A DNA stretch of 35,851 bases from a virus. The stretch lies in UHGV virus genome UHGV-0135983. One strand, written 5' to 3'. Made by a program: the position numbers and the translations under genes. Shown here in pieces: positions 5,271 through 35,851 of this stretch. A model generated the notes under the pieces. The model was given only the letters and a program-made list of their open reading frames with translations, did no database searches and was not told where the DNA came from. Positions within the stretch are counted from its first letter, which is position 1. Each line of letters opens with the position of its first letter.

Positions 5271-5299
5271 AAAAAAGCCCCGTGGTTATCCATAGGGCT
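5271..5299 (-). terminator. Intrinsic terminator-like hairpin plus U6 immediately upstream of the small-terminase ATG
   Basis: Minus-strand RNA is AGCCCU (5299-5294), a 12-nt loop, GGGGCU (5281-5276), then UUUUU and AUG. The stem has 5 Watson-Crick pairs plus one G.U pair. Confidence 0.45.
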
Positions 5300-5333
5300 A
5301 TAATGTGCCGGGCTAGAGGTCGGAATCCTGACT
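5300..5333 (-). promoter_or_regulatory. Late-promoter candidate c upstream of the terminase genes
   Basis: Minus strand reads AGTCAGGATTCCGACC-N12-CATTAT, ending 30 nt upstream of the ATG at 5270. Confidence 0.5.
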
Positions 5334-5404
5334 ATTGCATATGCAGCGATGTACGTATAAAACTAGCCGACATTAATATAATCATTTTCATTCAGAGGCT
5401 CCCT

Positions 5405-5842
5405 GTGAAAACTTTATTCCCCTTAATACTGTTTATCGTAACTTCTACCGTTTGCGCCAAAGAAGTTAAATATGACTTTCCTCCAGATGGGGAAATGGCA
5501 AAATCACTCAAACCAGAAATTGTTGGCGTGGCTAATTATGAAATGGTCAATAGAAGCGTGCGCTTAAAAGCTTTAGATGTTGGTGAAAAAAATGTTTCTC
5601 TCCTGGTAGTCATAGGTGCTACCGACACCAGAAAACCCGTTACTCAAGCTAACATCCCTGACAAACAATCAATCTCATTAACTAAACAGCAAATTGTGAA
5701 CAAATATTGTGCACCATTCGGGTATGGCAATTGGTACTTTGATGCCTTCAAACAGCGGGGTGTAAAACTGCACTATTACTTTTACTCGGCAGTAGACACC
5801 CCGTTATTTACATTCACGGTAAATAAATCTGATTGCGATTAA
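5405..5842 (+). CDS. Secreted (periplasmic) moron protein of unknown function
   Basis: GTG at 5405 lies 6 nt after GAGG. The signal peptide is VKTLFPLILFIVTSTVCA|KE, and there are two Cys in the mature part. The gene is AT-rich, opposite in orientation to all neighbours, and its stop overlaps the convergent gene. A possible promoter is TTGCAT (5335) with TATAAA (5356). Confidence 0.6.
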   Translation: MKTLFPLILFIVTSTVCAKEVKYDFPPDGEMAKSLKPEIVGVANYEMVNRSVRLKALDVGEKNVSLLVVIGATDTRKPVTQANIPDKQSISLTKQQIVNKYCAPFGYGNWYFDAFKQRGVKLHYYFYSAVDTPLFTFTVNKSDCD

Positions 5843-8733
5843 CGCATACCGGGATCGACCTGGTTAATCAGCGGCGCAATCCAGAACAGATTATTACCGG
5901 GTAACAGCGTACGCACGTTATGCAGCACACGGTCGCCGGCGTCGCCATTCAGCACGCCGGCGGTTACATCTGTAACGGTATCCAGCAGGCCAAAGGTTGG
6001 CCCCAGAGCAGAACCGATAAAGCCGCGGCTGGCGTAACGGGACTGCGTACCGGTGCCGAGCAATGGCCCTAGCCCTACCATCCCGCCGGATGCCTTTTCA
6101 GCCATGTTGTTATATTCCATCAGTGGACCGAGGATACCAGAACGGTCGATGCCCTCGAGAACCATCTTCTGCGGGGTCAAATCAACTTCCCGGCCATTAG
6201 CCGCCTGCTTAAGCGCATAGGTCAAAGAGCCCAGGCCAATCTGGAAGGCGGTGCCGTAATAGAACTGCGCGGTACCTTCCTGCAGGCCGCCGAGCGTTGC
6301 GCGATTATAGGATGCCGTAGCAAAAGACTTAAACTGGAATACGGTTTTCCCCAGCGGGGTACTAGCCCACAGCGGCGTATCACCGATCCCCGGCGTGATA
6401 ACTGTATTGTTTACGTCTTTCAGTACCGCGGATTGCAGCAAACCGGCGGCGTACTGGTCATCCCATTTTTCGAAATTGCCGATATGCCAACCCTGAATAA
6501 CTTCGCCGTGCTTCTGAAATTCTCGCTGGATGCGTTCGGCCATCTTCTCATTGATGCCGAGTTTTGCCAGGCGCTTCGCAGGGAACGCGCCGGACAGAAT
6601 ACCGTCGGACGTGATCATGCCATTCACCGATTTGTTCATATCGTCAAAGTGGCCCATCATGGTCAACTTGCCGAACACATCGGTAATACGTTCCATGCCA
6701 GCTTCTGCAGCTGTCGTACGTGAAGAGCTATCGACCAGATCCCCCATCGTACGCGCGCGGGTATGCAGTATGGTTTCAAGTCCAACGGCCATTTTCTTCT
6801 GATCCGCCCGGCTGGCGAGGTAAGCCGGCGAGCGGGTAATCAGTGCGCCATATCCACGCATGGTATTGCTGAAGCCGTTAACCATCATGCCGCGCGCCAG
6901 ATCCGGGATAGCGGATACCGTCATGCCACCGAGTTTTGTTACAAAGTTGGCGCTACGCAGGAAAGCACCGGCGCGGACGAAAAATGATGATGGGTCATCC
7001 GGCATACCGTAGGTACCAACGAGGCGATCGCGGAGCGCCAGAATATCGCGCAGGTCGGCTTCGCGCGCCTTCGCCAGCTTTTCCTGTTCTGCCGGGCGTA
7101 AACGCATCAGCGCGTCGTATTCGTCCTGGATGGCGGCGAGCTGCGAATCCAGCGACTTATTGCCAAAGGTGCGGGTTAATTCGATTTCTGCTGAGGCTTC
7201 ACGAATATGACGCTGCAGGACGTAGTTAGCATCGCTCTCCAGATAATCTTTCATCAGGCGATCGGGAACGCTCAACGTACGCGATTTTGTGCTACCCGGC
7301 GCTTTCACCATAAAGACGTTGGCGAACTCCTGCGGAATTTTGGCCCCGACAATACGGTTGATAGTGGTATCTGCGGCAATTTCGGCATCTTCGCGGGACA
7401 TGGTTTTTTCACCGCGTGACCACCAGTCAACCAGCATGTTGCGGAATTTATCGCGCTCGCTAACGATTTTCCCTACCTTGTACACGCGTGGGAAATAGCT
7501 GGTCTGTCCCATCGCTTTCAGTTCGGCATCCGGCGGAAGTAAACCCAGTTCCTGCTGTGCCGTCTTCACACGATTGATGACCGTACGCATTGCCTGTGCC
7601 GCTTCCTGCACTTTCGCATTAACGTGCACGTCACCGTTGCGCAGCGCCTCGCCAACCTGTTCACGGAAGGCCGTATAACCCAGATCGCCGCCTTCGGCTT
7701 TGTACTGGGTGTATGCCTGCTTATTCGCAGTAACGACGGCCGCCTCTTCACGGCGCCAGCCACGTACGCGCGTCTCAGCTGCAACCGGCGTTTCAATACC
7801 GCGCAGGTTGCCTTCCAGCGTGAAGTTATTCTCTGCAAGTTCCAGCGCTGTCCGGCGCGCTTCTTTTGATGGGGATTCCATCAGGCGGGTGATCGGCGTC
7901 AGATAGCTACCGGCTTTTTTAGCCAGCTTGCCTAGTGGGCCGCCAGACACCGGTGTGAGATCATCCAGCGTAGCTTCGCGGATACGCATGGCGCCGACGC
8001 TGCCACCATTCGGTAAAGTATCCGCCAGGGCATCAGCTGCGTTGTTAATCGTTGGCGAGGCGTTCATATTATCGAGCGCCTCCGCCACTTCACGGGTGGC
8101 CGCATTTCTTACCGACGGGGTGATCATCGCGCCAGCAGTGGCAAATACACCGCTGAGAAGTGCGCCGGCAGTAATGTGTGCGGCGCTCTCCCTGGCTGTT
8201 CTGGTGTACTGCTCGTTATTGAGCGCAACCTCGCTAAGTGCGGTACCGGCAGCGCCAATAGCAACCTGAGAACCAATACGCGCAGCCAAGCTTCCCTGCG
8301 CACCAGGAATAAACATCGATGCGACCGTGACAGGGTCGATAATTCCGGCGGCGATACTAGCCAAAGTTCCTTCAGCGCCTGTTTCAGACAGCACCCGGCG
8401 GTCTTCGTTTTCATCGTCTATCTGGTTTTTAATCCAGGCGGTTTCCTCTGGGGATTTTGAATCCGCAAAGGCGGATCCCCATTGTTCGTACCCCTTTAGT
8501 TCGTTTTTATCAGAATAAGGGTTATAACCGTCCGCCGGTTCGAATTGTTTAGCCGGGCGGAACATTCCGGCCAGCAGGTTATTCTGACGAAAAGCGGCAT
8601 CCCATACAGACGGTTGCTGTTGCAGCGGTTCCGGGTTAGTTCCTTTAGGCAGAGATACATCAAAACCAGTTGGCTCCTGAAGAGCATTATCCATTACGCT
8701 TAGCGGTTCGTCAGATTGTGGGTAGAAAGGCAT
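5839..8733 (-). CDS. Large internal virion/ejection protein (T7 gp15/gp16-class)
   Basis: The protein is 964 aa, Ala/Gly-rich, coupled (TAATG) to the preceding SLT protein, and lies last in the internal-protein block. Confidence 0.6.
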   Translation of the reverse strand: MPFYPQSDEPLSVMDNALQEPTGFDVSLPKGTNPEPLQQQPSVWDAAFRQNNLLAGMFRPAKQFEPADGYNPYSDKNELKGYEQWGSAFADSKSPEETAWIKNQIDDENEDRRVLSETGAEGTLASIAAGIIDPVTVASMFIPGAQGSLAARIGSQVAIGAAGTALSEVALNNEQYTRTARESAAHITAGALLSGVFATAGAMITPSVRNAATREVAEALDNMNASPTINNAADALADTLPNGGSVGAMRIREATLDDLTPVSGGPLGKLAKKAGSYLTPITRLMESPSKEARRTALELAENNFTLEGNLRGIETPVAAETRVRGWRREEAAVVTANKQAYTQYKAEGGDLGYTAFREQVGEALRNGDVHVNAKVQEAAQAMRTVINRVKTAQQELGLLPPDAELKAMGQTSYFPRVYKVGKIVSERDKFRNMLVDWWSRGEKTMSREDAEIAADTTINRIVGAKIPQEFANVFMVKAPGSTKSRTLSVPDRLMKDYLESDANYVLQRHIREASAEIELTRTFGNKSLDSQLAAIQDEYDALMRLRPAEQEKLAKAREADLRDILALRDRLVGTYGMPDDPSSFFVRAGAFLRSANFVTKLGGMTVSAIPDLARGMMVNGFSNTMRGYGALITRSPAYLASRADQKKMAVGLETILHTRARTMGDLVDSSSRTTAAEAGMERITDVFGKLTMMGHFDDMNKSVNGMITSDGILSGAFPAKRLAKLGINEKMAERIQREFQKHGEVIQGWHIGNFEKWDDQYAAGLLQSAVLKDVNNTVITPGIGDTPLWASTPLGKTVFQFKSFATASYNRATLGGLQEGTAQFYYGTAFQIGLGSLTYALKQAANGREVDLTPQKMVLEGIDRSGILGPLMEYNNMAEKASGGMVGLGPLLGTGTQSRYASRGFIGSALGPTFGLLDTVTDVTAGVLNGDAGDRVLHNVRTLLPGNNLFWIAPLINQVDPGMR

Positions 8734-15920: not shown

Positions 15921-16056
15921 AACAATCACTCCAGAAAGTATCGCCTGCGGGGTATCGGTTTCCCGGCCCAAATCAGCACAATGCGGTTGGCGCTGGCGCA
16001 TTGCGGGAAAATCAGGTATCCGGCGTCCCCGCCGGGCTGGTTGTGGAGTGATTGTT
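15921..16056 (-). promoter_or_regulatory. Long-range 13-bp perfect anti-SD/SD pairing flanking the capsid 5' leader
   Basis: 16056-16044 (AACAAUCACUCCA) is the exact complement of 15933-15921 (UGGAGUGAUUGUU). The latter contains the capsid SD and abuts the AUG. Confidence 0.5.
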
Positions 16057-16084
16057 AGCGAGGAGAGCGGTCGGAATCCCGACC
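16051..16084 (-). promoter_or_regulatory. Late-promoter candidate b upstream of the capsid gene
   Basis: Minus strand reads GGTCGGGATTCCGACC-N12-AACAAT. Confidence 0.5.
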
Positions 16085-16109
16085 AAATGAGCGAAAGTAA
16101 GCCGTGCTG

Positions 16110-16994
16110 TTACCCTCTGGGTTCTTTTATCCTATAACCTGTGCCAGGCATGAATTCATCAATAACTCTTGCCGCGTGACCTATAACTCGAAACGCTGAG
16201 CGTGCTTCTTCATCGGTAATTTTAGTCGCTTTAGTCGGGTCATAATCAGGAGTTTGGTCATCGTCAAAATGTACTCGATAGCCAAATTTTGATATTTCTC
16301 TGAAAATGGAACTAACTGACCTATCAATAGTTGCCATAGTGTCCATTAATCTATTTTTATCCTCCTCAATTTTATTTTTTATTTTCTCATAAGGGCCTAG
16401 CTCATCTACTAAATCTTTAAGAGCATCCGACTTAGAATTTATTTCACCTTCAATTTCATTAAGTTTCCCTTCCGCCAACTCAAGCTTCGAACTTAAAATA
16501 TTAAATTGTTCTTCAGCTTCTTCATATGACTTCTTAATGCTCTCGATATCATGTGTAACTTTAGTAACCTTGAGTTCTTCTTCTGCATTCCTTTTTGCAA
16601 ACAGAGATGTTTGATAAGCTAGTGCGCTATCTGCTTTAGCTGTGTATTCAGCAATGATTTCACGAGCCTCACTCTCAGATTTTGCCCTTTTGATATCGTT
16701 ACCATCAGCGATTTTTTGCGCGCATCTTTGAAAAAAACTCACAGCATGACTAGCATAAGGAAAAAGAACGGCAATAATAAAACCCAAAAGGATAGGAGCA
16801 ACTACAGAATACCAAAAAATACATGGTTCACTTTTCACTTTAATGATTCTATCTTGTAGTTCTCCACTACCCATTAAAACTATCAATAAACTATCCCAGT
16901 TAAACCCCAGCCATGAGAGGACTATGAACCCGAAAAGAGGAGTGTTTATTCTTTGAATTAAAGTTTTCTTTACCGCATCAGCTAATTCGTCCAT
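16110..16994 (-). CDS. AT-rich moron: membrane-anchored coiled-coil protein of unknown function
   Basis: The protein is 294 aa with two predicted TM helices (res ~18-42 and ~57-80). A ~120-aa heptad-like charged region and a C-terminal globular part follow. The gene has its own promoter-like ATGACT-17-TTAAAT and an AAGGG SD. Confidence 0.7.
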   Translation of the reverse strand: MDELADAVKKTLIQRINTPLFGFIVLSWLGFNWDSLLIVLMGSGELQDRIIKVKSEPCIFWYSVVAPILLGFIIAVLFPYASHAVSFFQRCAQKIADGNDIKRAKSESEAREIIAEYTAKADSALAYQTSLFAKRNAEEELKVTKVTHDIESIKKSYEEAEEQFNILSSKLELAEGKLNEIEGEINSKSDALKDLVDELGPYEKIKNKIEEDKNRLMDTMATIDRSVSSIFREISKFGYRVHFDDDQTPDYDPTKATKITDEEARSAFRVIGHAARVIDEFMPGTGYRIKEPRG

Positions 16995-17066
16995 ACGCTT
17001 ACCCTTATGAAGAAACTATCGAAGGATATTTAAGAGTAAAAGGCAAGAAAAGTCATTAACTTTAAA

Positions 17067-17095
17067 TAGAAAAAGCCAGCGAAGTTATACTGGCC
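17067..17095 (-). terminator. Intrinsic terminator after the scaffold gene, upstream of the moron
   Basis: Minus strand reads GCCAG, a 10-nt loop, CTGGC, then TTTTTCTATTT. Confidence 0.55.
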
Positions 17096-17115
17096 TTTGA
17101 TATTACCGTGGCGTG

Positions 17116-17964
17116 TCACACTACGGTTTGCTCGCCGTAACGCTTCTGGTAGTACGCTTTAACCTGTGCAGATACGCGTTCATGGTCGGTATGCTTCGGA
17201 TTCATGTACGCTTCGGACTTCATCAGGTCGCGGATTGATTGCTGCTCTGCCGGGTTGCTGTCTGCGCCCGCTGGCGCGTCTTCCTGCATTTCCGCACCGA
17301 TTTTCGCCAGCATGCGGATCACCATCGGGTTATTGCCGATTTCATCAATGCGGCCGCGATCACCTTCATCGGTCAGGGAATTGAACGCGCGGAAAGCCAG
17401 ACCGATATTCTTGTTAAATTCCGCGTCAGTCTTCCAGACTTCGCGCAGCTGCGTGGTGGCCGCCTCCGAATCCAGCGCCGCGGCGCCGTTGACCAGTTCA
17501 GGCGCAATCTGCGCGTATTCGCTGATAATAAATCCCATCTGATCGTTAGTGATGCCCTTGGCGTGCGCCGACTTCATGAATGATTGCATGCGGGGATCGG
17601 CCTTGAACTCGTCCCAGTTGAAGCCCTCGGCCTTCACCTCAGGTGCATAATCATCTGCCGTTTTCGGCGGCGCGTCGCCGCTGCCCATGCGCTTTTCAAG
17701 GTGCGAGTAAGCATGCGCCAGTTTGCGGGCAGAGCCTTCAATGTCGAGTTTTCCACCTTCGCCCATAACGCGGTATTTTTCAGGTATCCAGTCATTCGCG
17801 CCCGGTTCGCCCGCTCCGGTGCTGAGAAGTGTATTGCCAGCAGAATTATCAGCGCCCTGATTTTCAGTACCACCGCCATTGCCACCATCATTACCCCCTG
17901 TGCTGCCTGCTGGCGCTTCGGCGCCCTGCTCGGCGTTCATGAATAAGTGTTTAATCTTCCACAT
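17116..17964 (-). CDS. Scaffolding protein
   Basis: The protein is 282 aa, acidic and low-complexity (a GGNDGGNGGG tract). It lies between the portal and capsid genes. Confidence 0.65.
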   Translation of the reverse strand: MWKIKHLFMNAEQGAEAPAGSTGGNDGGNGGGTENQGADNSAGNTLLSTGAGEPGANDWIPEKYRVMGEGGKLDIEGSARKLAHAYSHLEKRMGSGDAPPKTADDYAPEVKAEGFNWDEFKADPRMQSFMKSAHAKGITNDQMGFIISEYAQIAPELVNGAAALDSEAATTQLREVWKTDAEFNKNIGLAFRAFNSLTDEGDRGRIDEIGNNPMVIRMLAKIGAEMQEDAPAGADSNPAEQQSIRDLMKSEAYMNPKHTDHERVSAQVKAYYQKRYGEQTVV

Positions 17965-21275: not shown

Positions 21276-21872
21276 TCAGGCGGCATAGCTGAATAATTGC
21301 GAGGCTGCGTTTTCTGCTGCCTGCTGATTGGGGAATGTGCGGAATAAAATAAAATTCCAGAGGACGTCTAATACGGATTTATACAGCTGAGAAAATTCTA
21401 CATCGTCCATTTTTGCGAACGATATGGATTTGGGTTCCTTGCGGGTAGTGCCATCAGGCATCTGGTATTCGGTATAAAAACCGGCTTCGATAGTTACCCA
21501 GGAACGGAACGCTTCAAACGATTTAACCGCACTAATATTTCCGGCGCGTTTTTCTGCTTCATCGCGGAGATACTGATCAGCCAGTTCCTGCAATGTGTCG
21601 GCATGCCCGGCATAGTGGGCCACCAGCTGCACGTAACCACGAACCAGTTTTTTATCGGCTGGCGATATTGCACCGCCGGAAGGTTGCCAGTAATCAAATC
21701 CCAGATTCAGGAGGGCAAAAAATTTGCGGTGGAACGCCGGGTTTCTTGCCTGCTTAAAATCCGCATACAGAATACCGCCCATGCGAACTTTTTTTTCTAA
21801 GAATTCGCGGGCGTCAGGCGTTGCTGGAATTAATACACCGCCAGGTGCTTTTACAAAAGAATACTGCGCCAT
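21276..21872 (-). CDS. DUF1367-like phage protein
   Basis: The N-terminus MAQYSFVKAPGGVLIPATP...ADFKQARNPAFHRKFFALLNLGF matches my recollection of this family. Confidence 0.55.
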   Translation of the reverse strand: MAQYSFVKAPGGVLIPATPDAREFLEKKVRMGGILYADFKQARNPAFHRKFFALLNLGFDYWQPSGGAISPADKKLVRGYVQLVAHYAGHADTLQELADQYLRDEAEKRAGNISAVKSFEAFRSWVTIEAGFYTEYQMPDGTTRKEPKSISFAKMDDVEFSQLYKSVLDVLWNFILFRTFPNQQAAENAASQLFSYAA

Positions 21873-21940
21873 TGGGTTCCCCTTTAGCGCAGCAATTGTT
21901 CAGAATTACATGGTGTTGGGTGTTCAGGCCAACGGGGTAA

Positions 21941-22132
21941 TTATAGCATATTGCCGTCTGGTTTGATAATGGTATAACCAGTCAATTTAGCTAATTCAAA
22001 CAACGCGTTAAGTGTCGCTACGTGCTCATCGGAATGGACGATTCTCGTCTTCTTAATTTTGCCCTTTTTACATGTTATCAGCACATCACCATCATCGGGG
22101 AGAAGGTCTCCTGCATCTTTCTTATCAATCAC
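21941..22132 (-). CDS. Small AT-rich protein behind a LexA box, a candidate SOS-controlled antirepressor
   Basis: The maximal ORF runs to a TTG at 22201, but the predicted promoter and SOS box lie inside that extension. GTG at 22132 lies 5 nt after GGGAG and gives 63 aa. Confidence 0.45.
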   Translation of the reverse strand: MIDKKDAGDLLPDDGDVLITCKKGKIKKTRIVHSDEHVATLNALFELAKLTGYTIIKPDGNML

Positions 22133-22152
22133 TACCTCTCCCTCGCTGATAA

Positions 22153-22201
22153 TACTGTATAAATTCACAGTATATATACTACCAACTGACAGTGAGCGCA
22201 A
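22153..22201 (-). promoter_or_regulatory. Sigma70-like promoter followed immediately by a LexA (SOS) box
   Basis: The promoter is TTGCGC (22201-22196), 17 nt, TATATA (22178-22173). The box TACTGTGAATTTATACAGTA (22172-22153) has intact CTGT-N8-ACAG arms. It has 3 mismatches to TACTGTATATATATACAGTA, all in the spacer. Confidence 0.7.
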
Positions 22202-22261
22202 ACTTTTAAGAGCACGAATCGTTAAAAATCAACAATAAAACTGAAAATATCCGTTTGAATT

Positions 22262-22288
22262 CAAAAGAAAACCGCCATTTCTGGCGGT
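22262..22288 (-). terminator. Intrinsic terminator after gene 22315-22653
   Basis: Minus strand reads ACCGCCA, GAAA, TGGCGGT, then TTTCTTTTG. The stem is a 7-bp perfect match. Confidence 0.7.
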
Positions 22289-22314
22289 TCTGTTTTATCT
22301 GGTATGGTTGTTCG

Positions 22315-22653
22315 CTATGCTGACAATTTAGTTTCGTGCCACCCTCGCGTTACCCAGCATTTCGAATCACCAGCGCACGGGCAGGAGGTGATCGGCAGCG
22401 ACTCACCGCATTTTCTACACAGACGTTTGCTGATCGATTTGATATGGCCACTAAGCCGCGCATCATCCTGACGGATCAGCATAGATATATACTCGGCCAG
22501 TTCGTACGGTTCACGGCCCGGGCGCCGGGCGGCGCAGTTACGCGCCAGCATGTCCATTTCCTGCGCATCGAGAACCAGCTCAATTTTCCGGTTGCCGGCG
22601 GCAGATTGCCGCGCCCTCTGCGCGGCTTTACGTTCTGCGGATGATTTAGCCAT
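22315..22653 (-). CDS. Hypothetical protein with a C-terminal Cys cluster
   Basis: The protein is 112 aa. CRKCGESLPITSCPCAGDSKC looks like a zinc ribbon. The SD is GAGAAGG. Confidence 0.55.
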   Translation of the reverse strand: MAKSSAERKAAQRARQSAAGNRKIELVLDAQEMDMLARNCAARRPGREPYELAEYISMLIRQDDARLSGHIKSISKRLCRKCGESLPITSCPCAGDSKCWVTRGWHETKLSA

Positions 22654-22686: not shown

Positions 22687-23520
22687 TCATGCTGCACGCT
22701 CCTGTTTCTGTTGTGCTGCAGGGTTAAGCCAGAGGCATTCAGTACGGACTTTCGTACCGCGCCCGGCACTGATGCGCGATGCTTTCTCGGTCTTCGCCCA
22801 GCCGGATAGCATGTCGTTGTAGACATCAGTGTCGTAACCGCTAATCATCACCATGCCTTTCATCGTTCTGGACACAGCGAGCAATTGCTCATGCCCTTCA
22901 ACGGTCATTTCATGGTTGTAATAACGATTTTTCTGCACTCGTGTTTCCGGCATATATGGCGGATCGATGTAATGCAGCGTCGTTTCTGCGTCGTGGGCGC
23001 GCATTACCGCCAGAGCGTCTTTGTTCTCGATGATGACTCCTTGAAGGCGCTGACAGACAACAGCGAGATTAGCCGGGTAACGCTCCCATAGATGCGCCGC
23101 CGTAGCGTATTTGCGTTTGCTGTCGCTGCGGAAGCCGGATTGACCGCCGATACCTGCGGCAGAGCCGAACCCCATACAGGCACGAACCACCATGCGGCGG
23201 GCGCGTTCGATAGGGTCAGTGGCTGGTTGCTGAGCGTGACAGAACTCATCGCGTGAATACGGGGTCAGGCAACAGGCATCCTGCAGGCGCTGGTTTAATT
23301 CAGGGTCGCGCAATACACGAAACAGGTTCACCACCTCGCCGTCGAGATCGTTGTACACCTCTGAATAGCTACGCGCTTTTTGTAGCAATACGCCAGCAGC
23401 CCCGCCGAACGGTTCGACATAGCAGACGTGTTCCGGCATCTGCTCGATAATCCAGTGTGCCAGTCGGAATTTCCCGCCGTGATATCTGATTACAGGATGC
23501 CTGATTTTTTTTTCAATCAT
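22687..23520 (-). CDS. dam: Dam-type (D12 class) N6-adenine DNA methyltransferase
   Basis: Motifs are EPFGGAAGV (SAM binding) and IDPPY. The protein is 277 aa. Confidence 0.85.
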   Translation of the reverse strand: MIEKKIRHPVIRYHGGKFRLAHWIIEQMPEHVCYVEPFGGAAGVLLQKARSYSEVYNDLDGEVVNLFRVLRDPELNQRLQDACCLTPYSRDEFCHAQQPATDPIERARRMVVRACMGFGSAAGIGGQSGFRSDSKRKYATAAHLWERYPANLAVVCQRLQGVIIENKDALAVMRAHDAETTLHYIDPPYMPETRVQKNRYYNHEMTVEGHEQLLAVSRTMKGMVMISGYDTDVYNDMLSGWAKTEKASRISAGRGTKVRTECLWLNPAAQQKQERAA

Positions 23521-23699
23521 TGATCATCACCCCATTCGTCATAAAAAAAATCATCAACTCGCTTATATGCCTCGTAAGCGGCTTCAATCTCCATTTCTGT
23601 GATATCGAATGATTTACCATTTAATTCGACGATTAATTCCAGCGCGTCGCCCCAATCTTCGAGCGACGCGGTTCTTTTGGTTGCGCTAAAATCTGCCAT
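23517..23699 (-). CDS. Small acidic hypothetical protein
   Basis: The protein is 60 aa and is coupled on both sides. Confidence 0.45.
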   Translation of the reverse strand: MADFSATKRTASLEDWGDALELIVELNGKSFDITEMEIEAAYEAYKRVDDFFYDEWGDDQ

Positions 23700-24290
23700 C
23701 TATGCTACCTCCCCGATATATTCTGCAATGCCCGGCAGCAGCGCCACCGCTGGCGATTCACACTGGTTGCCCCACACGTCGAAACCATGCGACGACTGGC
23801 GGGCGAATAACTCAATACGCGGTACATCGCCCAGCAGCTGCACCAGCTTTTCGCGCACGATATCCGGTTTGCGCGAATGCTCCAGACGCGGGGCCGTGAA
23901 TGACTGAACGATCCCGGCATCCAGCCGGGCGGGTAATTTCCCCTGCACAGCGAAAAGGCAATCTTCACTGTTCGCCCTGGTCATATGGCCCATTCCTATG
24001 GCCAGTTTGTCGGTCTGCCGGCTGTAGCATTTGTTCCACGTAAAGCCTTTCATGGTCATCAGGCGGAAGCCCCACGCCTCGACTACTCGCAACGCCTCCA
24101 GCGGCTGAGTCGGTACCCACCACATAGCCAGCAGGCAGTTTTCAGCGGCCAGTTCCCAGACCGGAAGACGGCAGATATCGAGCACAGTCATGGTCTGGTA
24201 TTTATGCCCGACGCCACGCTCGCCATCTTTGGCTTTATCGCGGTACGTCCAGGGCGGATCGCAATAAATTAAAGTGTATTTTTCATTCAT
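23700..24290 (-). CDS. MT-A70 family N6-adenine methyltransferase
   Basis: IYCDPPWTY carries the DPPW motif. The protein is 196 aa. Confidence 0.8.
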   Translation of the reverse strand: MNEKYTLIYCDPPWTYRDKAKDGERGVGHKYQTMTVLDICRLPVWELAAENCLLAMWWVPTQPLEALRVVEAWGFRLMTMKGFTWNKCYSRQTDKLAIGMGHMTRANSEDCLFAVQGKLPARLDAGIVQSFTAPRLEHSRKPDIVREKLVQLLGDVPRIELFARQSSHGFDVWGNQCESPAVALLPGIAEYIGEVA

Positions 24291-24817
24291 TATTTCGAAT
24301 CCTTAATAATATTGGCAACACGATTAAATGATTCATACGTTTCAATGTTTCTTGAGAAATTAAGGAGCCTTGTCTTACCAGATGGATAAACCCGACCTGA
24401 ATAAGTCTTGTTCTGCGTTCTAAATTCAATTGTTTGTTTTATAGAACCAATATTTTTATCACTAACAATCTCACTAGCAGCCATAAAACCCACTTTTTCC
24501 TCTTCAATTACAACGAACGCGTAAAAGTCACAGGAACCATAATTAGTTGCTCTGCAAGTTCCTTTCCCTGTTCTGGTGCTGAACCGAAAAACATTCTTCG
24601 ACTTTCCATAGTCGCGCATACACAAGGTTGTTCTGACTTGCCCTCTTAATAAATACTCGCCAGATTGAACAACTATATCGTATGGCAATCCTTGGTCTGA
24701 GGGGAAACATATAAAACCCTGCTTACTGAGTTTAAATATGGCGTAATACTCACCACATTTGCCAAGTTCTAACTCGCTCGAAAAATCGCTTATGTTTATA
24801 TCAATAGTCCCATTCAC
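24290..24817 (-). CDS. PD-(D/E)XK nuclease-fold protein (PDDEXK_5-like), AT-rich
   Basis: The pattern is GKCGEYYAIFKLSKQGF...PYDIVV...LRGQVRT...CDFYAFVV, i.e. E ... D ... Q-V-[K>R]. Its stop overlaps the MT-A70 ATG (TAATG). Confidence 0.6.
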   Translation of the reverse strand: MNGTIDINISDFSSELELGKCGEYYAIFKLSKQGFICFPSDQGLPYDIVVQSGEYLLRGQVRTTLCMRDYGKSKNVFRFSTRTGKGTCRATNYGSCDFYAFVVIEEEKVGFMAASEIVSDKNIGSIKQTIEFRTQNKTYSGRVYPSGKTRLLNFSRNIETYESFNRVANIIKDSK

Positions 24818-24984
24818 GCCAGCACCCCGCTACTGCGGAGATATTCCAGCGCCCACTGCGCAACCTCACATCCAGCCCATATCAGAGCGATAATGACTAT
24901 CCAGCCAACCACGTTTGCACTGAGTACAAACAGCATCAGCGTCCTGCGGCTGCAATGCATAAAATCAGGTGTTGAAAATTTCAT
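24814..24984 (-). CDS. Small single-TM membrane protein
   Basis: The ATG at 24984 (ATGA coupling, GGGAGAAG SD) gives MKFSTPDF...LMLFVLSANVVGWIVIIALIWAG. Confidence 0.45.
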   Translation of the reverse strand: MKFSTPDFMHCSRRTLMLFVLSANVVGWIVIIALIWAGCEVAQWALEYLRSSGVLA

Positions 24985-25214
24985 GTCCGCTTCTCCCGCC
25001 AAAAATTTAATCGTTCTTTGAAAAACTCTCGGTAGCTTTCCGGCGTCGCTGCAATCTGCTCAACGATGGCCTGTCGAGTAACTTTCTTCTCGAACAGCTG
25101 GCGTATGAGTGCCGAGGCGCGCATGTCGTAGTGCTCTTTGATCTGGCACTCCTGCGGCCATTTGGCGCGATTGAGCGGTAAGCCGGGCGGCAAGTAATCT
25201 GATTGCCCGGCCAT
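24981..25214 (-). CDS. Hypothetical protein
   Basis: The protein is 77 aa and lies in the operon with coupled ends. Confidence 0.5.
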   Translation of the reverse strand: MAGQSDYLPPGLPLNRAKWPQECQIKEHYDMRASALIRQLFEKKVTRQAIVEQIAATPESYREFFKERLNFWREKRT

Positions 25215-25924: not shown

Positions 25925-27331
25925 TTAAAATGCATCGGTATTGAATTTCTCAGAGTATTTACGGGGTTGTTTCCGGGGTTTCGCGGCCTCCAGTTGGATA
26001 CGTGTTTTCTCTTTGCCAACATGCTGATCCATTGACAGAAAGTGTCCGTTTTTAAATTCCTGATAAATAATTGCTCCTGCGGCGCTGAAGCGGCTTTTAC
26101 CCAGGATAATTTCAGCGACGCCAGCCGCCGGGCTTTCCGGGTTGTAAACCTCATCGCGGTACAGAAACATGATGCTGTCGGCGTCCTGCTCAATGGATCC
26201 GGAATCACGCAGGTCTGACATGACCGGGCGACGCTGAGCCGCAGGGCGGGAATCGACGGCGCGGGAAAGCTGGCTAAGCGCGAACGTCGGCGTATGCAGG
26301 CGCATAGCCATAGTTTTTAGGTTTCGGGATATGTGGGCGATCGCAAGGTCGTTACGCTCTGCCTTCGGTTTTTTAATCAGGCCAACGTAATCGACAACGA
26401 TCATCGCCAGATGCGGATACCGGCGCTTATGCGTTTCGGCAACGGCGCGGATTTGCTCAATCGTCAGATCGGTAGCATCAACGATCCAGATATCGCGCCC
26501 GTTCATGGTCTCCATGGCCGCTGTAAAGCGCGCCCAGTCCTCGTCCTGCATATCGAGGGGATTACGCAGGCGTGACACTGACATGTTTCCAGAACCCGCC
26601 AGAGAGCGTTCTACGATTTGCGCAGCGGCCATTTCCATGCTGAATATCAACGCGCCACCGCCGGCAGCGGTAACACCATCGACAATCTTCAGCGCAAATT
26701 CTGTTTTACCCATACCCGGACGCCCAGCGACGACAATCAAATCCTGCAGGTTAATTCCGCCGGTCGCATCGTCCAGTTCCTCGATCCCGGTTTTCAGGTT
26801 TCGGGTGCCCTCTTCGCCGTCCATGCGCTTCTGCATGGTTTCCATGTACACCGGCAATAATTCGCTCATGTGTACCGGCTGCACGTCGCCAGTGTCGCCG
26901 GTCATGTCCAGCAGCTGCGCAACGGCAGTTTCGACAACCTGATCGCGCTGTTCCTGGTTTATCGCATCACGAATACCATCCGCACCATCCTGCAGTAATT
27001 GCGCGATGGTTCTGCTTCGCCAGGCCTTAACCATTTTTTTGGCGTAGCCTTTGAGATTGACAATCGATGTCGGGAATTTGCAAATATCGGCGAGATTGGC
27101 CAGCGTCCCCTGTCCGCCAATGGCTTCGCTAATGTACATCATGTCAATTAAGCCGCCGCTCAAGGCCTGCGCTTTGATCACACCGTAAATCTGCCTGTAG
27201 TATGCGACGCTGAAAGCTTCGCTCGGAGTGCTGGCAATCACATCAAAGGCGTCTGGCGTGGCGCCACCGTTCATCAGGCAGCCAAGAACCAGACATTCCA
27301 GCTCCTGAGTGGAATACATCATCTGCATCAT
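25925..27331 (-). CDS. dnaB: Replicative DNA helicase (DnaB family)
   Basis: Walker A is GRPGMGKT. It has the typical DnaB C-terminal RecA-like domain, including IEQDADSIMFLYRDEVY. The protein is 468 aa. Confidence 0.9.
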   Translation of the reverse strand: MMQMMYSTQELECLVLGCLMNGGATPDAFDVIASTPSEAFSVAYYRQIYGVIKAQALSGGLIDMMYISEAIGGQGTLANLADICKFPTSIVNLKGYAKKMVKAWRSRTIAQLLQDGADGIRDAINQEQRDQVVETAVAQLLDMTGDTGDVQPVHMSELLPVYMETMQKRMDGEEGTRNLKTGIEELDDATGGINLQDLIVVAGRPGMGKTEFALKIVDGVTAAGGGALIFSMEMAAAQIVERSLAGSGNMSVSRLRNPLDMQDEDWARFTAAMETMNGRDIWIVDATDLTIEQIRAVAETHKRRYPHLAMIVVDYVGLIKKPKAERNDLAIAHISRNLKTMAMRLHTPTFALSQLSRAVDSRPAAQRRPVMSDLRDSGSIEQDADSIMFLYRDEVYNPESPAAGVAEIILGKSRFSAAGAIIYQEFKNGHFLSMDQHVGKEKTRIQLEAAKPRKQPRKYSEKFNTDAF

Positions 27332-29064: not shown

Positions 29065-29262
29065 TTATGCTTTAGACGTGTTTTGCTCTTCGTAAAAAGT
29101 AGGGTCGTATTTCAAGGCGCCTGCAGTTACATGCTCAAGTCGCGCAGCTCGCTTTTCAGGAACAACAGCACCCCAGCGGGTTACAGCGACTTGAGAGATA
29201 CCTAATGCACGCGCAACAGCGGTTTTAGTTCCAAAAAATCTGATAACAGTTTCGGTCTTCAT
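29065..29262 (-). CDS. cro: Cro-like HTH repressor (YdaS family)
   Basis: The HTH is GTKTAVARALGISQVAVTRW. The protein is 65 aa, has an AGGAGAGG SD, and is divergent from the repressor gene. Confidence 0.75.
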   Translation of the reverse strand: MKTETVIRFFGTKTAVARALGISQVAVTRWGAVVPEKRAARLEHVTAGALKYDPTFYEEQNTSKA

Positions 29263-29272
29263 AGTTTCCTCT

Positions 29273-29333
29273 CCTAACGTCAGTTAGGAACATAAATACT
29301 AACGAAAGTTATGTCAAGTTAACTTATATTATG
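29273..29333. promoter_or_regulatory. Immunity switch: three TAAC-N4-GTTA-type operators overlapping divergent promoters
   Basis: O1 is CCTAACGTCAGTTAGG (29273-29288). O2 is ACTAACGAAAGTTATG (29298-29313). O3 is GTTAACTTATATTATG (29318-29333, weaker). The minus-strand PR-like promoter is TTGACA (29317-29312), 17 nt, TATGTT (29294-29289). Confidence 0.6.
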
Positions 29334-29744
29334 GACATGAAAAAATTGACCTTTAACGATCGCATTACATCGAGACGGAAAGAGCTTGGCTTAACCCAAC
29401 AGCAGCTCGCCGATGCCGTTGGCATATCTGGCGTAAGCGTCTACAAGTGGGAAGCAGGTATTAACACCCCAAAAGGGCAAAATCTGTTTTCTCTCGCTGA
29501 GGCTCTTCGTTGCTCTCCGACATGGTTACTTAACGGAACCGATAGCGATGAACCGTTGAAGGCGGAAGACCTTTTACCTCGGTTAGATGATCGCCAAAAG
29601 CTATTGCTTGATCTTTTTGACTCCCTACCTGAATCAGAAAAAGATAGACACATCAATGAGTTGAAAGATAAAGTTGACGGATTCCAGCGATTGTTTGATG
29701 AGTTACTTTTGGTAAAAAAGAAAAAAAACACTCCAAAAAAATAA
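29331..29744 (+). CDS. cI: CI-like XRE-family repressor lacking an S24 peptidase domain
   Basis: The HTH is LTQQQLADAVGISGVSVYKWEAG. The protein is only 137 aa with a helical, charged C-terminus. There is no SD, and TATATT at 29325-29330 would give a leaderless mRNA starting at the second ATG (29337). Confidence 0.8.
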   Translation: MDMKKLTFNDRITSRRKELGLTQQQLADAVGISGVSVYKWEAGINTPKGQNLFSLAEALRCSPTWLLNGTDSDEPLKAEDLLPRLDDRQKLLLDLFDSLPESEKDRHINELKDKVDGFQRLFDELLLVKKKKNTPKK

Positions 29745-29748
29745 ATTA

Positions 29749-29780
29749 AAGGCAATGTTTTCAATGCATTGCCTTTTTTT
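29749..29780 (+). terminator. Intrinsic terminator after the repressor gene
   Basis: The sequence is GGCAATG, a loop, CATTGCC, then TTTTTTT. Confidence 0.7.
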
Positions 29781-29793
29781 ACACCTCAAATAT

Positions 29794-29844
29794 TAACTTT
29801 TGTTAGTAAAAAATATTGCCAATAAAAATACCTTTGGTTATGCT
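29794..29844 (+). promoter_or_regulatory. Fourth operator copy plus candidate promoter(s) for the downstream + strand genes
   Basis: The operator is TTAACTTTTGTTAG (TAAC-N4-GTTA at 29794-29805). One promoter option is TTGTTA-18-AAAAAT. The other is TTGCCA (29816), 17 nt, TATGCT (29839). Confidence 0.4.
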
Positions 29845-29926
29845 TCATCACATCAACGACGCACTAACCACGCGGCAGTTGTTCAGAAACGTTCCGCCGA
29901 CCCGGCGTTAAGGGGGAGGAGAAGTG

Positions 29927-30145
29927 ATGGAAAACGCTGTATTAGGTGCCGTCGGACCAACGCTGAATGTGTTGCTGGATGCACTGAAAGAAGAGAAAGG
30001 AGCCGCCAACGTCGAGGACGTCAAAGCGGTCATCCAGGTTATCAGTGAAGTTGTAGGCAAGTGCGATGGTGATCTGGCTACTGGTTACGCGGTTTGGGAT
30101 GAACTGCTGAATGCGGTGTTACGACATATTTCGACAAAGGGTTAA
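29927..30145 (+). CDS. Hypothetical acidic 72-aa protein in the immunity-adjacent slot
   Basis: A strong GGGGGAGGAG SD precedes the ATG at 29927. Confidence 0.5.
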   Translation: MENAVLGAVGPTLNVLLDALKEEKGAANVEDVKAVIQVISEVVGKCDGDLATGYAVWDELLNAVLRHISTKG

Positions 30146-34446: not shown

Positions 34447-34641
34447 ATGCTGCGATGGCAACCGGGAGCTGTATTGCTCTCAGATTTCGATATCAAGATT
34501 GGCCGGTTATCCGCCAGCGTACGAAAGAAGACCCTGACCAGGACTGAAATCGAACGCGCATGCGAAGAAGCTGATAACGCGATCGCCGGCATGATGAGGA
34601 AAGACCATGGTCAGAAAAAACGACCTTCTCACCGACGCTGA
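34447..34641 (+). CDS. Hypothetical small protein
   Basis: The ATG at 34447 follows GGAG. It overlaps the next gene by 35 nt, so support is weak. Confidence 0.3.
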   Translation: MLRWQPGAVLLSDFDIKIGRLSASVRKKTLTRTEIERACEEADNAIAGMMRKDHGQKKRPSHRR

Positions 34642-34831
34642 GATGATTGAATTTACAGGTTGTAAACAACCAATCAAACAAAAAGAGGTTCTAGATCGTG
34701 GAGGTGTCTCATACATACAGGATAGAGAGGGGCGCCCTATGGTTACCTGGACGCATATTAATGCAGTTCTGAATGGACAAATAACCATCCAATTAGGCAG
34801 CGAAGAAAAACCAAATTTTGAGGCGATATAG
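34607..34831 (+). CDS. DUF4224-type protein, a likely excisionase or recombination directionality factor
   Basis: LLTDAEMIEFTGCKQPIKQKEVLDRGGVSYIQDREGRPMVTW fits the DUF4224 pattern. It lies immediately upstream of int (TAGATG junction). Confidence 0.6.
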   Translation: MVRKNDLLTDAEMIEFTGCKQPIKQKEVLDRGGVSYIQDREGRPMVTWTHINAVLNGQITIQLGSEEKPNFEAI

Positions 34832-35851
34832 ATGGGAAGGAGAAGAAAAGATCCAACAGATAATAAATTGCCACCTCGTGTTTCAAAAACCAAAACTCGG
34901 TATTACTACAAACCCACAGCACGAGAAACTATAACGCTAGGGCCAATAACTCTTTCAATGTCTGCATTGTGGAAACGTTATGAGGAAGAAAGACGAAATC
35001 ACTCAGGAGTAATGACGTTTGAAAAGCTCTGGGGAATGTTTTTAAAGAGCGCCTATTACACCGAACTCGCAATTCGTACCCAAAAAGATTATTTGCAACA
35101 TCAAAAAAAATTATTAGTCGTTTTTGGAAAAATGAAAGCTGATCTTATCAAGCCCGAAGAAGTTCGCCAGTTTATGGATCGACGTGGCCTAAAAAGCAAA
35201 AATCAGGCTAATCAGGAAATGAGTAGTATGTCGAGGGTGTTTCGATGGGGTTTTGAACGTGGTTATGTAAAAGGCAACCCATGTGCCGGGGTTAGTAAGT
35301 TTTCGTTAAAGGCACGTGAACAATATATTACCGATGAAGATTATCTGGTTATCTATAAAAATGCTGATTCAGTTGTGCGGGCTGCAATGGAAATATCATA
35401 CCTGTGTGCTGCCCGCCAGGCTGACGTGTTGGGATTGTGCTGGATGCAGATAACAGACAAAGGGATATTCATTCAACAGGGTAAGACGGGGAAAAAGCAG
35501 ATCAAGGTCTGGACCCCTCGCCTTCATCAAGCCTTCGTTACGGCACAAATAGATTGCCCCAAACTGTCTGCTAACGGACTAGTGATCTACAACAACGATA
35601 AAGGCCAGTTTATCCGTAAGACGTTCAATAATCGCTGGCTTAAAGCCGTACGCGCAGCACAAAACGAATTGGGGCGACAACTGGACTATACATTTCACGA
35701 TATCAAAGCGAAGGGGATTTCAGATTTCGAGGGTAGCAGTAAGGACAAGCAGATGTTCAGTGGCCACAAGACGGAAAGTCAGGTTCTGGTGTATGACAGA
35801 AAGGTACAAATAAGCCCTACTTTGAATCTACCCGTAATTGGCGGTGATTGA
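34832..35851 (+). CDS. int: Tyrosine integrase (lambda Int family)
   Basis: It has an arm-binding-type N-terminus. The C-terminal catalytic region contains ...RQADVLGL...HDIKAKG...GHKTESQVLVYDR. The stop codon is the last triplet of the window. Confidence 0.9.
   Translation: MGRRRKDPTDNKLPPRVSKTKTRYYYKPTARETITLGPITLSMSALWKRYEEERRNHSGVMTFEKLWGMFLKSAYYTELAIRTQKDYLQHQKKLLVVFGKMKADLIKPEEVRQFMDRRGLKSKNQANQEMSSMSRVFRWGFERGYVKGNPCAGVSKFSLKAREQYITDEDYLVIYKNADSVVRAAMEISYLCAARQADVLGLCWMQITDKGIFIQQGKTGKKQIKVWTPRLHQAFVTAQIDCPKLSANGLVIYNNDKGQFIRKTFNNRWLKAVRAAQNELGRQLDYTFHDIKAKGISDFEGSSKDKQMFSGHKTESQVLVYDRKVQISPTLNLPVIGGD

Follow-up and report, generated by a model that had tools for sequence, protein, structure and literature searches.

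An AT-rich gene at positions 24290 to 24817 (minus strand) of the viral DNA analyzed here, a stretch of 35,851 nucleotides hereafter called the window, is most likely a selfish mobile cassette of a kind that has repeatedly inserted at the start of phage adenine-methylase genes. From comparison of the sequences, we give a probability of roughly 0.6 to the reading that its product is a free-standing homing endonuclease that targets the DNA encoding conserved methylase motifs.

The gene starts with GTG and encodes a 175-amino-acid protein of the I-Ssp6803I/PDDEXK_5 family. The motifs GKCGE, PYDIVV, GQVRT, and CDFYAFVV can be read in the translation and supply the residues E23 (codon at 24749 to 24751), D47 (24677 to 24679), Q60 (24638 to 24640), and R62 (AGA; 24632 to 24634), all on the minus strand. 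The window protein scored 25.9 bits against Pfam PDDEXK_5 (PF11645), 0.2 bits short of the cutoff of 26.1, while many of its homologs carry a precomputed match to the same model. A PDB search with the single nuclease sequence returned only noise, so that a profile search was required; a profile of 35 homologs recovered I-Ssp6803I (PDB 2OST), encoded by a group I intron of Synechocystis, at an E value of 4.9e-5 with the YD...QVK residues aligned. The nuclease shares its three-dimensional fold with this solved family member, to which its similarity is far greater than to resolvases. It matched none of the PADLOC defense and restriction models or the NCBIfam models, and at the sequence level it resembles no catalogued or characterized restriction enzyme. 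PvuII is a restriction enzyme that has the same fold (PMC3384342).

The active site of I-Ssp6803I, numbered here from the alignment, has the same layout as that of the window nuclease: a Glu on helix 1, the YD motif, and QxK, whose Gln stands where an Asp or Glu is usually found. The two proteins are also similar in size. The constellation is incomplete in the window protein, since its clade carries Arg (R62) at the position of the catalytic Lys. The preliminary description, which had proposed a PD-(D/E)XK fold of the PDDEXK_5 type, a GxxGE helix followed by the three other motifs, and an Arg in place of the catalytic Lys, is borne out in these respects.

No variation was seen at E23, D47, or Q60 among 106 homologous loci; residue 62 is Lys at 70 of them and Arg at the other 36. 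In the Arg-bearing clade, dN/dS values of 0.03 to 0.14 show strong purifying selection, which indicates that the clade encodes a working protein and, together with the intact ORFs, rules out a decaying pseudogene. Recent spread was seen in Arg-type cassettes. PD-(D/E)XK enzymes are usually crippled by a Lys-to-Arg change, and this counts against a homing function. The conserved residues nonetheless suggest that the nuclease is catalytically competent with Arg62. The suggestion in the preliminary description that the gene encodes a noncatalytic derivative thus keeps the substitution in its favor and is weakened by the invariant residues and by the selection on the clade.

The gene downstream (23700 to 24290, minus strand) encodes a 196-amino-acid MT-A70-family adenine methyltransferase with DPPW at residues 11 to 14. 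It scored 81.5 bits against PF05063 (cutoff, 23.9), covering the full-length model from 1 to 172, matched the PADLOC MTase_II model at 9.6e-77, and by BLASTP shares 77% identity with an Stx phage enzyme, the adenine methylase of TL-2011c. It is 96 to 98% identical to the methylases of phages that lack the nuclease. The TAA of the nuclease gene and the ATG of the methylase gene share one base (...GATTCGAAATAATGAATGAAAAATAC), and an AAGGA Shine-Dalgarno sequence lies 10 nt 5' of this ATG. A sigma-70-like site in the 3' end of the nuclease gene (24318 to 24289) is regarded as a chance occurrence; it cannot serve the methylase because its -10 element overlaps the methylase ATG.

Upstream of the nuclease gene lies a small hydrophobic ORF of 62 amino acids (phrog_2936; 24814 to 25002, minus strand), which in the phages with an empty site is coupled directly to the methylase. 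These genes belong to an early operon whose closely spaced genes extend from DnaB, by way of the nuclease, MT-A70, and Dam genes, to a phrog_536 regulator; it ends at a terminator-like hairpin (22268 to 22291, minus strand). The second methylase of the operon is a 277-amino-acid protein of the D12/Dam class (22687 to 23520, minus strand; Pfam PF02086, 5e-21), which is replaced in sister prophages by an HNH_3 gene and a C5 methylase gene. M.EcoGV, a close relative of the window MT-A70 methylase, is reported to methylate GATC (cited in PMC10810198). GATC would already be protected in a Dam-positive host, and a Dam-positive enterobacterial host is assumed here.

The nuclease ORF has a GC content of 37.3%, against 58.8% in the methylase body past the DPPW codons and 53 to 55% in the upstream genes, and just 1.6% of the 528-nt segments within the 35.8-kb window are equally AT rich. 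The AT-rich tract runs on for 30 nt into the methylase gene, where the first 10 codons (24261 to 24290, minus strand; MNEKYTLIYC) have a GC content of 20% and move with the nuclease cassette. The corresponding codons of nuclease-free alleles read MNNKYTLIYA, and 7 of 27 nt in this segment distinguish occupied from empty alleles, which are near-identical beyond it. We presume from this comparison that positions 24261 to 24290 are an altered target segment. The divergence ends at the DPPW (motif IV) codons GATCCGCCCTGG (24249 to 24260, minus strand), which form the right-hand junction of the cassette here and in other clades; an example of a nuclease-free allele reads ...GTGAATAACAAATACACCCTGATTTATGCGGATCCGCCCTGG..., and one of the L113 type reads ...GGCGTGAATAACAAATACACCCTGATTTATGCGGATCCGCCCTGGACG....

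The left-hand junction is GTGAAT (24812 to 24817, minus strand), the nuclease start, which corresponds to the methylase start and second codon of nuclease-free phages and overlaps the stop codon of the small ORF before it (GCGTGA); this region is ...GGCGTGAATAACAAATAC... in empty alleles and, in the window, ...GGCGTGAATGGGACT.... The right edge of the cassette always falls at DPPW or DPPY codons, and the one or two residues preceding DPPW always differ between the two kinds of allele, being YA in nuclease-free alleles and YC, YS, MA, or LA in carriers. In a survey of 80 nuclease-free alleles of the window type, all those read out had YA except L150, which has YS. No long pseudopalindromic target was evident in the empty alleles; the 10-bp GCGGATCCGC found in some of them is unconvincing. 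An Rfam search at the gathering threshold of the window and three further loci (L005, L065, and L081) gave no family, so that no sign of a group I intron or of another RNA element was seen near the nuclease gene, and no intein was found. The lack of such a target and of an intron or intein counts against homing. Because the methylase ORF is also intact, we regard the nuclease gene as free-standing.

Six IMG/VR phages (L113, L119, L122, L123, L127, and L130) have flanks 96 to 97% identical to those of the window and lack precisely the nuclease ORF. Empty alleles with 94 to 97% identical flanks were found in three clades. The same pattern of presence and absence separates the L005 clade from L002 and L003, and a clade of 220-amino-acid MT-A70 methylases comprises 10 carriers and 70 noncarriers. 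The nuclease gene begins at the start codon of the methylase itself in at least six different upstream contexts, and in an N6_N4 case the junction lies exactly before DPPY. For the short N6_N4 clade (L064 type) no close empty alleles were found, the next relative being 77% identical.

The cassette is younger than its flanks. Nuclease genes that are 97 to 99.8% identical at the nucleotide level stand before methylase bodies that are 84 to 91% identical, with the step at DPPW. Between L001 and L051, for example, the nuclease genes share 97% nucleotide identity, the upstream sequence is unalignable, and the mismatch density, 2.8% up to DPPW, is about 15% from there on. The reverse pattern, in which the flanks are younger than the cassette, was seen in no pair. 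At two loci (L064 and L065), a 71-amino-acid N-terminal methylase remnant stops exactly before the DPPY codon and is followed by the nuclease and an intact methylase, and at four others (L081 and L090 to L092) the order is a complete ParB-methylase, the nuclease, and a diverged duplicate that begins at motif I. These methylase fragments may be footprints of repair. E. coli genomes were rejected as empty-site comparators, since the sole flank match (H23/L109) carries the unrelated cargo of a DUF2971 gene and an IS element and is therefore uninformative.

A DNA methylase gene adjoins the nuclease gene on the same strand in 38 of 51 homolog clusters and is nearby in 7 more. The methylases are of three architectures, MT-A70, short N6_N4, and ParB-N6_N4, and beside the large ParB-fused N6_N4 enzymes the nuclease sits downstream. 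The adjacency recurs on IMG/VR viral contigs and on contigs labeled Enterobacterales, Rhodobacteraceae, Acidobacteria/Bryobacterales, and Paenibacillus. Related methylases mostly occur as orphans, with the nuclease carried by 0, 10, and 5 of 80 in the sets surveyed. HNH and GIY-YIG endonuclease genes occupy the same slots, and five proteins exist in which ParB, PDDEXK_5, and MT-A70 domains are fused in frame. We found no published description of this nuclease-methylase association in the literature searched. The preliminary description had inferred, from an AT content above that of both neighbors, a foreign insertion directly upstream of, and overlapping by its TAA the ATG of, an otherwise orphan-type MT-A70 methylase, and these findings agree with it on each point; nor are homologs consistently found without a methylase, since the adjacency recurs as described.

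We propose that the minimal mobile cassette consists of the I-Ssp6803I-family endonuclease ORF and the first 30 or so nucleotides of the methylase coding sequence. In the lytic cycle, this endonuclease would cut nuclease-free alleles of phage beta-class adenine-methylase genes in the short segment that separates the start codon from the DNA for motif IV (DPPW/DPPY), and repair of the break from a phage or prophage that bears the cassette would copy the nuclease gene in. The insertion would do little harm: the nuclease would take over the ribosome-binding site and start codon of the methylase, and the cassette would give the methylase a new Shine-Dalgarno sequence, ATG, and first codons, with translational coupling kept. 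The altered residues before DPPW (YA to YC, YS, MA, or LA) presumably render the occupied allele uncuttable. A target in the DNA encoding conserved motifs would explain why MT-A70 and N6_N4 genes are both hit at the same relative position. Both cleavage and the target sequence are predicted here from the alleles compared.

The locus has several marks of a homing element: the cassette is present or absent at an exact site, has inserted repeatedly at one position in different backgrounds, and is younger than the sequence around it, and carriers have an altered putative target. The locus lacks the classical residence in a group I intron or intein. In this it differs from the intron-encoded I-Ssp6803I, the target of which is a tRNA gene, whereas that of the window nuclease would be a phage methylase gene. 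Free-standing homing endonucleases of T-even phages include the Seg and Mob enzymes, such as MobE between nrdA and nrdB and SegG near gene 32. They too are stand-alone, AT-rich ORFs that are wedged at conserved genes, are sporadic among close relatives, have short coconverted flanks, and alter the target sequence of the genome that carries them. The Seg and Mob folds are GIY-YIG or HNH, in contrast to the PD-(D/E)XK fold of the window nuclease. Unlike those elements, the insertion in the window captures the start codon of the target gene, and its hosts are temperate lambdoid prophages. General phage mosaicism, with crossovers favored where the DNA is most conserved (in the DPPW codons and around the start) and no break made by the nuclease, could explain some of the junctions.

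The reading raised as possible in the preliminary description, a compact restriction-modification or addiction pair, is in our judgment unlikely. The nuclease would cut DNA that lacks the mark of the adjacent beta-class methylase, be it that of the host, a competing phage, or other incoming DNA, and the methylase would protect the phage DNA. A same-strand and usually overlapping methylase in so many clusters and in three architectures is what such a pair predicts. Conserved, overlapping nuclease-then-methylase genes are a classical signature of type II systems, and this counts against homing. As in type II pairs with beta-class methylases, such as MunI/M.MunI, a small PD-(D/E)XK gene in the window overlaps the gene of an adenine methylase of the M.MunI/MT-A70 type. 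The invariant E, D, and Q residues point to real catalysis, the natural single-chain ParB-nuclease-MT-A70 proteins look like fused restriction-modification enzymes, and the nuclease almost never occurs without a methylase, whereas methylases freely occur alone, as expected of a toxic restriction partner. The fold shared with PvuII, the nearest restriction enzyme in this respect, also favors a pair (PMC3384342). However, the cassette moves separately from the methylase body, onto methylases that diverge by 9 to 16%, and what is exchanged is the ORF plus at most 30 nt, never the two genes as a unit; moreover, no catalogued restriction enzyme resembles the nuclease, and most related methylases are orphans. 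The gene is part of an early operon of the lytic cycle that continues unbroken from replication genes to terminator, which makes expression in a lysogen unlikely, and a nuclease upstream of and coupled to its methylase would leave restriction undelayed. If the host is Dam positive, as assumed, restriction at GATC, the site reported for the methylase's relative (cited in PMC10810198), would be nearly pointless, yet selection on the nuclease is strong.

Still less probable is that the protein, with its nuclease fold but possibly no catalytic activity in the Arg62 clade, is an accessory subunit that directs or activates the small MT-A70 enzyme. The precedent is the M.EcoPA8orf6770P-PNB-2 holoenzyme of Stx phages (PMC10810198), a locus carried by TL-2011c, in which a small nucleic-acid-binding protein is encoded directly upstream of the methylase that is 77% identical to that of the window and is translationally coupled to it, in the same slot as the nuclease. 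PNB-2 is reported to form a 1:1 complex with the methylase and to change its substrate preference, and MT-A70 enzymes are commonly heteromeric (PMC10810198, citing PMC4738411). In-frame fusions to MT-A70 and strong purifying selection despite the K-to-R change also speak for a subunit. However, PNB-2 is a 143-amino-acid winged-helix protein with only a weak HTH_11 match and no detectable kinship to the nuclease (hhalign probability, 0.13%). Invariance of E23, D47, and Q60 in Arg-type loci would be unexpected had catalysis been abandoned, in each set of 80 close methylase relatives 70 to 80 manage without the nuclease, the cassette swaps among diverged methylase bodies, and N6_N4 methylases are partnered as well, with the nuclease downstream of the large ParB-fused ones.

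It is likewise doubtful that the nuclease domain and methylase form one machine, either as a new family of phage restriction-like, self-versus-nonself modules or as a nuclease-fold targeting subunit for MT-A70, which could correspond in bacteria to the partner proteins of METTL3. The ParB-nuclease-MT-A70 proteins would then represent the machine in fused form, and Arg62 would mark an active site that is tuned or disabled; a functional partnership accounts for the five fusions no less well than a selfish insertion in frame, and in this they count against homing. We consider it very improbable that the gene is an ordinary moron or recombination nuclease, such as an Hjc-like resolvase, beside the methylase through a shared variable early-gene slot. 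That slot does vary, holding a ParB-like gene, a 235-amino-acid ORF, DUF1317, or PNB-2 in relatives, but adjacency to methylases across such distant contigs goes beyond chance, the junctions fall at methylase motifs, and the protein is far closer to I-Ssp6803I than to resolvases.

Should the pair prove functional, it would represent a new type of phage restriction-modification system or methylase holoenzyme. If the homing explanation is true, PD-(D/E)XK homing endonucleases would have a new niche at the 5' boundary of phage adenine-methylase genes or, in one sublineage, at the 3' boundary. Their targets would lie in the DNA for the most conserved methylase motifs, which would account for the hopping of one nuclease family between unrelated methylase families. 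The recurrent pattern of a nuclease beside a methylase in viral metagenomes could, unless recognized as such, be misannotated as restriction-modification, and Arg could work at the catalytic Lys position of the PD-(D/E)XK fold. The family would also offer natural long-target endonucleases, the targets of which could be read from empty alleles.

We interpret the 175-aa nuclease ORF (24290-24817, minus strand, GTG start), with a probability of about 0.6, as a free-standing homing endonuclease gene that, with up to 30 nt of the methylase 5' end, would form a site-specific minimal mobile cassette. This reading, drawn from sequence comparison, is based on a homing-endonuclease fold, foreign base composition, presence/absence polymorphism at a precise site, recurrent insertion into the same position of a conserved gene whatever the context, junctions at conserved-motif codons, duplications of methylase fragments at insertions, and short exchanged flanks with altered residues beside the junction. 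We infer that the protein cleaves DNA and that its target would lie in the coding sequence of motif IV (in one sub-lineage, of motif I), which would explain why a single nuclease family occupies the same relative position on MT-A70 and N6_N4 methylase genes alike.

The TAA of the nuclease and the ATG of the methylase share one base, and the nuclease ORF is indeed AT-rich (37.3% GC, against 58.8% in the methylase body and 53 to 55% in the upstream genes), only 1.6% of stretches of equal size being as AT-rich. The AT-rich tract reaches 30 nt into the methylase gene, giving its first ten codons a GC content of 20%, and the composition changes exactly at the codons for DPPW, the methylase motif IV (24249-24260). 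A sigma-70-like site within the 3' end of the nuclease gene (24289-24318, minus strand; TTGCCA, 18 nt, AATAAT; 10 of 12 matches) is probably a by-product of AT-richness, since its -10 element overlaps the methylase ATG. Other AT-rich islands (GC, 0.35 to 0.42) lie at 16001-17270, 5181-5930, 21741-22380, 29191-30000, and 34571-35500; the deepest covers the ORF at 16110-16994 (294 aa; weak MG280 match only), beside which an ORF at 17116-17964 (282 aa) has no Pfam match. These islands may be other morons within the late region.

Empty sites were found in six phages with flanks 96 to 97% identical, in which window position 24812 is joined directly to 24289. The empty allele reads ...GGCGTGAATAACAAATACACCCTGATTTATGCGGATCCGCCCTGG... 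and the occupied allele ...GGCGTGAATGGGACT...[nuclease]...AAATAATGAATGAAAAATACACTTTAATTTATTGCGATCCGCCCTGG..., and the start codon of the nuclease is the methylase's former start codon. The preliminary description is right in its proposal that a foreign nuclease gene was inserted upstream of the methylase. Between the methylase start and DPPW, occupied and empty alleles mismatch at 7 of 27 nt, with near-identity beyond DPPW. The same pattern was seen in the clade of comparison locus L005, relative to Klebsiella phage ST512-KPC3phi13.3 and an E. coli prophage, and likewise in a clade of 220-aa MT-A70 methylases, where all carriers of the nuclease read KYSLIMADP(P/A)W, all noncarriers read ..YSL(I/L)Y(A/V/S)DP..., and the sequences after the motif are common to both. 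In at least six upstream contexts, the nuclease ORF starts at the methylase start codon of matching nuclease-free phages. Among the 80 window-type nuclease-free alleles surveyed, DPPW is preceded by Tyr-Ala in all that were read out except L150 (Tyr-Ser); in carriers it is preceded by Tyr-Cys (the window and the K. pneumoniae prophages L190 to L194) or Tyr-Ser (the L005 clade). The DPPW codons begin GATCC..., placing within the methylase gene's own motif IV a GATC, which is also what the related M.EcoGV is reported to methylate. A 10-bp palindrome, GCGGATCCGC, stands at DPPW in many nuclease-free alleles (e.g., L113, 2999-3045) and is broken in all carriers.

Comparison of carriers points to recent movement of the cassette. 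L001 and L051 share a 97% identical nuclease with unalignable upstream sequence, and at the DPPW codons the density of mismatches goes from 2.8% up to about 15%; L047 and L051 show the same step. The opposite pattern was seen in no pair among those compared. Judged from these alignments, the cassette is younger than its surroundings. In L064 and L065, a 71-aa N-terminal methylase remnant, which stops exactly before the DPPY codon of an N6_N4 methylase (...ELAIV-stop), is followed by the nuclease and a complete methylase. In L081 and L090 to L092, a complete ParB-methylase and the nuclease are followed by a duplicate segment that begins at motif I (D.FGGSGST) and is 64 to 70% identical. We grade both remnant and duplicate as repair footprints.

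The window protein scores 25.9 bits against Pfam PDDEXK_5 (cutoff, 26.1) and matches PHROG 24524, of unknown function, at 7e-87. A well-aligned set of 35 homologs from a collection of 5.8 billion proteins, in which E23, D47, Q60, and K85 are invariant, gave a profile that matched I-Ssp6803I (2OST; E = 4.9e-5), a proven homing endonuclease (PMC3384342), with PYD...GQV(K/R) paired with SYD...VQVK. This match identifies the nuclease as a full-length structural relative of that enzyme. When 1.84 billion cluster representatives were searched with a profile, 1467 relatives were found at E values up to 1e-3, most of them stand-alone proteins of 140 to 230 aa. Four proteins of about 290 aa from outside the window (P0038, P0043, P0046, and P0047) contain two full, tandemly duplicated PDDEXK_5 domains and could be pseudo-dimeric, single-chain forms of the endonuclease, and a 672-aa ORF (L096, 4998-7016) with N-terminal PDDEXK_5, Glyco_transf_9, and TylF O-methyltransferase matches is either a genuine fusion or an artefact of ORF calling. 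E23, D47, and Q60 do not vary across 106 homolog-bearing loci, of which 70 have Lys at residue 62 and 36 have Arg, the latter being the enterobacterial clusters (window included), L076, and L027. The Arg at the catalytic Lys position had earlier suggested a non-catalytic derivative; the substitution stands, but the invariant residues and dN/dS values of 0.03 to 0.14 within the Arg clade (unsaturated pairs) indicate that the Arg proteins are functional with the remaining active site still constrained, which weakens a non-catalytic role, and Arg62 would presumably be compatible with catalysis.

Neighboring genes were called in 24 genome and 80 IMG/VR loci retrieved with the nuclease alone as the query. 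The 85 distinct downstream neighbors included 29 MT-A70, 17 N6_N4_Mtase, and 1 C5 methylase, the 85 distinct upstream neighbors included 18 N6_N4_Mtase, and a ParB_N domain was present in 8 neighbors. When the nucleases were collapsed at 90% identity into 51 clusters, a same-strand methylase directly adjoined the nuclease in 38, usually with overlap, and lay within 1.5 kb in 7 more. The link between nuclease and methylase is real. Few of the methylase loci surveyed carry the nuclease: 0 of 80 of the closest window-type MT-A70, 10 of 80 of the 220-aa MT-A70 type, and 5 of 80 of the short N6_N4 type.

That conserved adjacency, with the invariant catalytic residues, could also indicate a restriction-modification partnership, as could five in-frame, apparently single-chain ParB-[PDDEXK_5]-MT-A70 proteins of 488 to 666 aa (P0115, P0128, P0184, P0189, and P0190). 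The fusions retain the E/D/QxK residues, each occurs on only one to three contigs, and the insert is clean, about 190 aa long, and just N-terminal to FGVIYADPxW; more than 800 ParB-MT-A70 family proteins otherwise have no nuclease insert. As elsewhere, carriers and noncarriers are unlike in the motif region (DPCW or DPPW in fused forms, DPEW in nuclease-free relatives), and in-frame selfish insertion could also account for the fusions. As side observations, DPCW occurs in two nuclease-containing fusions, DPEW in ParB-MT-A70 proteins, and DPAW in several apparently intact enterobacterial and environmental MT-A70 genes, the unusual motifs being found in the MT-A70 genes of L041 to L052, L056, L058, and L076 and in P0183, P0185 to P0187, P0212, and P0245. 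Because the cassette is exchanged independently of methylases that are mostly orphans, the restriction-modification or addiction pair of the preliminary description is not the best-supported reading, and we consider such a partnership unlikely: the nuclease resembles no restriction enzyme in the PADLOC defence-system models, and the genes form part of a lytic operon. Moreover, the MT-A70 methylase is 77% identical to its counterpart in Stx phage TL-2011c, and a close relative, M.EcoGV, methylates GATC when overproduced, according to PMC10810198, a mark that the Dam of the host, assuming a Dam-positive enterobacterium, would already write.

Stx phages encode the small protein PNB-2 in the same gene slot, a precedent for the nuclease being a methylase-targeting subunit; the nuclease shows no homology to PNB-2, keeps its active site, and seldom accompanies close relatives of the methylase, which together make this improbable. 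An unrelated moron or resolvase is the least credible alternative, as it would leave the census of methylase neighbors unexplained.

The setting is a temperate-phage genome with a portal gene, other late genes, and an integrase at the window end. Its tightly packed, minus-strand early operon encodes the DnaB helicase (25925-27331), a 222-aa phrog_4183 protein, a 77-aa HolE/theta-like protein (24981-25214; phrog_1105, 2e-29; weak PF06440 match), a 62-aa hydrophobic ORF (24814-25002), the nuclease, the 196-aa MT-A70 methylase (23700-24290), a 60-aa ORF, a D12/Dam-class methylase (22687-23520), and a phrog_536 regulator and ends at a terminator-like hairpin (22291-22268). The HolE-like protein, resembling the theta subunit of DNA polymerase III, is thereby encoded beside replication genes. 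The nuclease gene is positioned where lambdoid phages keep 'nin'-type delayed-early genes, which suggests that it is expressed in the lytic cycle and not in the lysogen. The slot between the theta-like and MT-A70 genes (24290-25214) is a cargo hot spot, as compared in L110 (2047-2998), L003 (3555-4265), L108 (2554-2985), and L118/L120, and holds, depending on the phage, only a small hydrophobic ORF, a 261-aa ParB-like protein with a small ORF, a 235-aa protein without a Pfam match, DUF1317, or PNB-2. Variability extends to the region 3' of the MT-A70 gene: in the window it consists of the 60-aa ORF and Dam-class methylase (22687-23699), and sister prophages L190 to L194 (4121-6528), with the same nuclease and MT-A70, encode a 76-aa ORF, a 205-aa HNH_3 endonuclease, and a protein of 660 aa that weakly matches C5 methylases. 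HNH and GIY-YIG endonuclease genes are found in neighboring slots.

In jumbo gut phages, PDDEXK_5 genes are already classed among the stand-alone homing endonucleases (PMC12880540); our literature search found no description of a methylase-gene niche for them. By the favored reading, the window would carry an I-Ssp6803I-family free-standing endonuclease cassette that is specialized for the adenine-methylase genes of phages and that, unusually, has Arg in place of the catalytic Lys.
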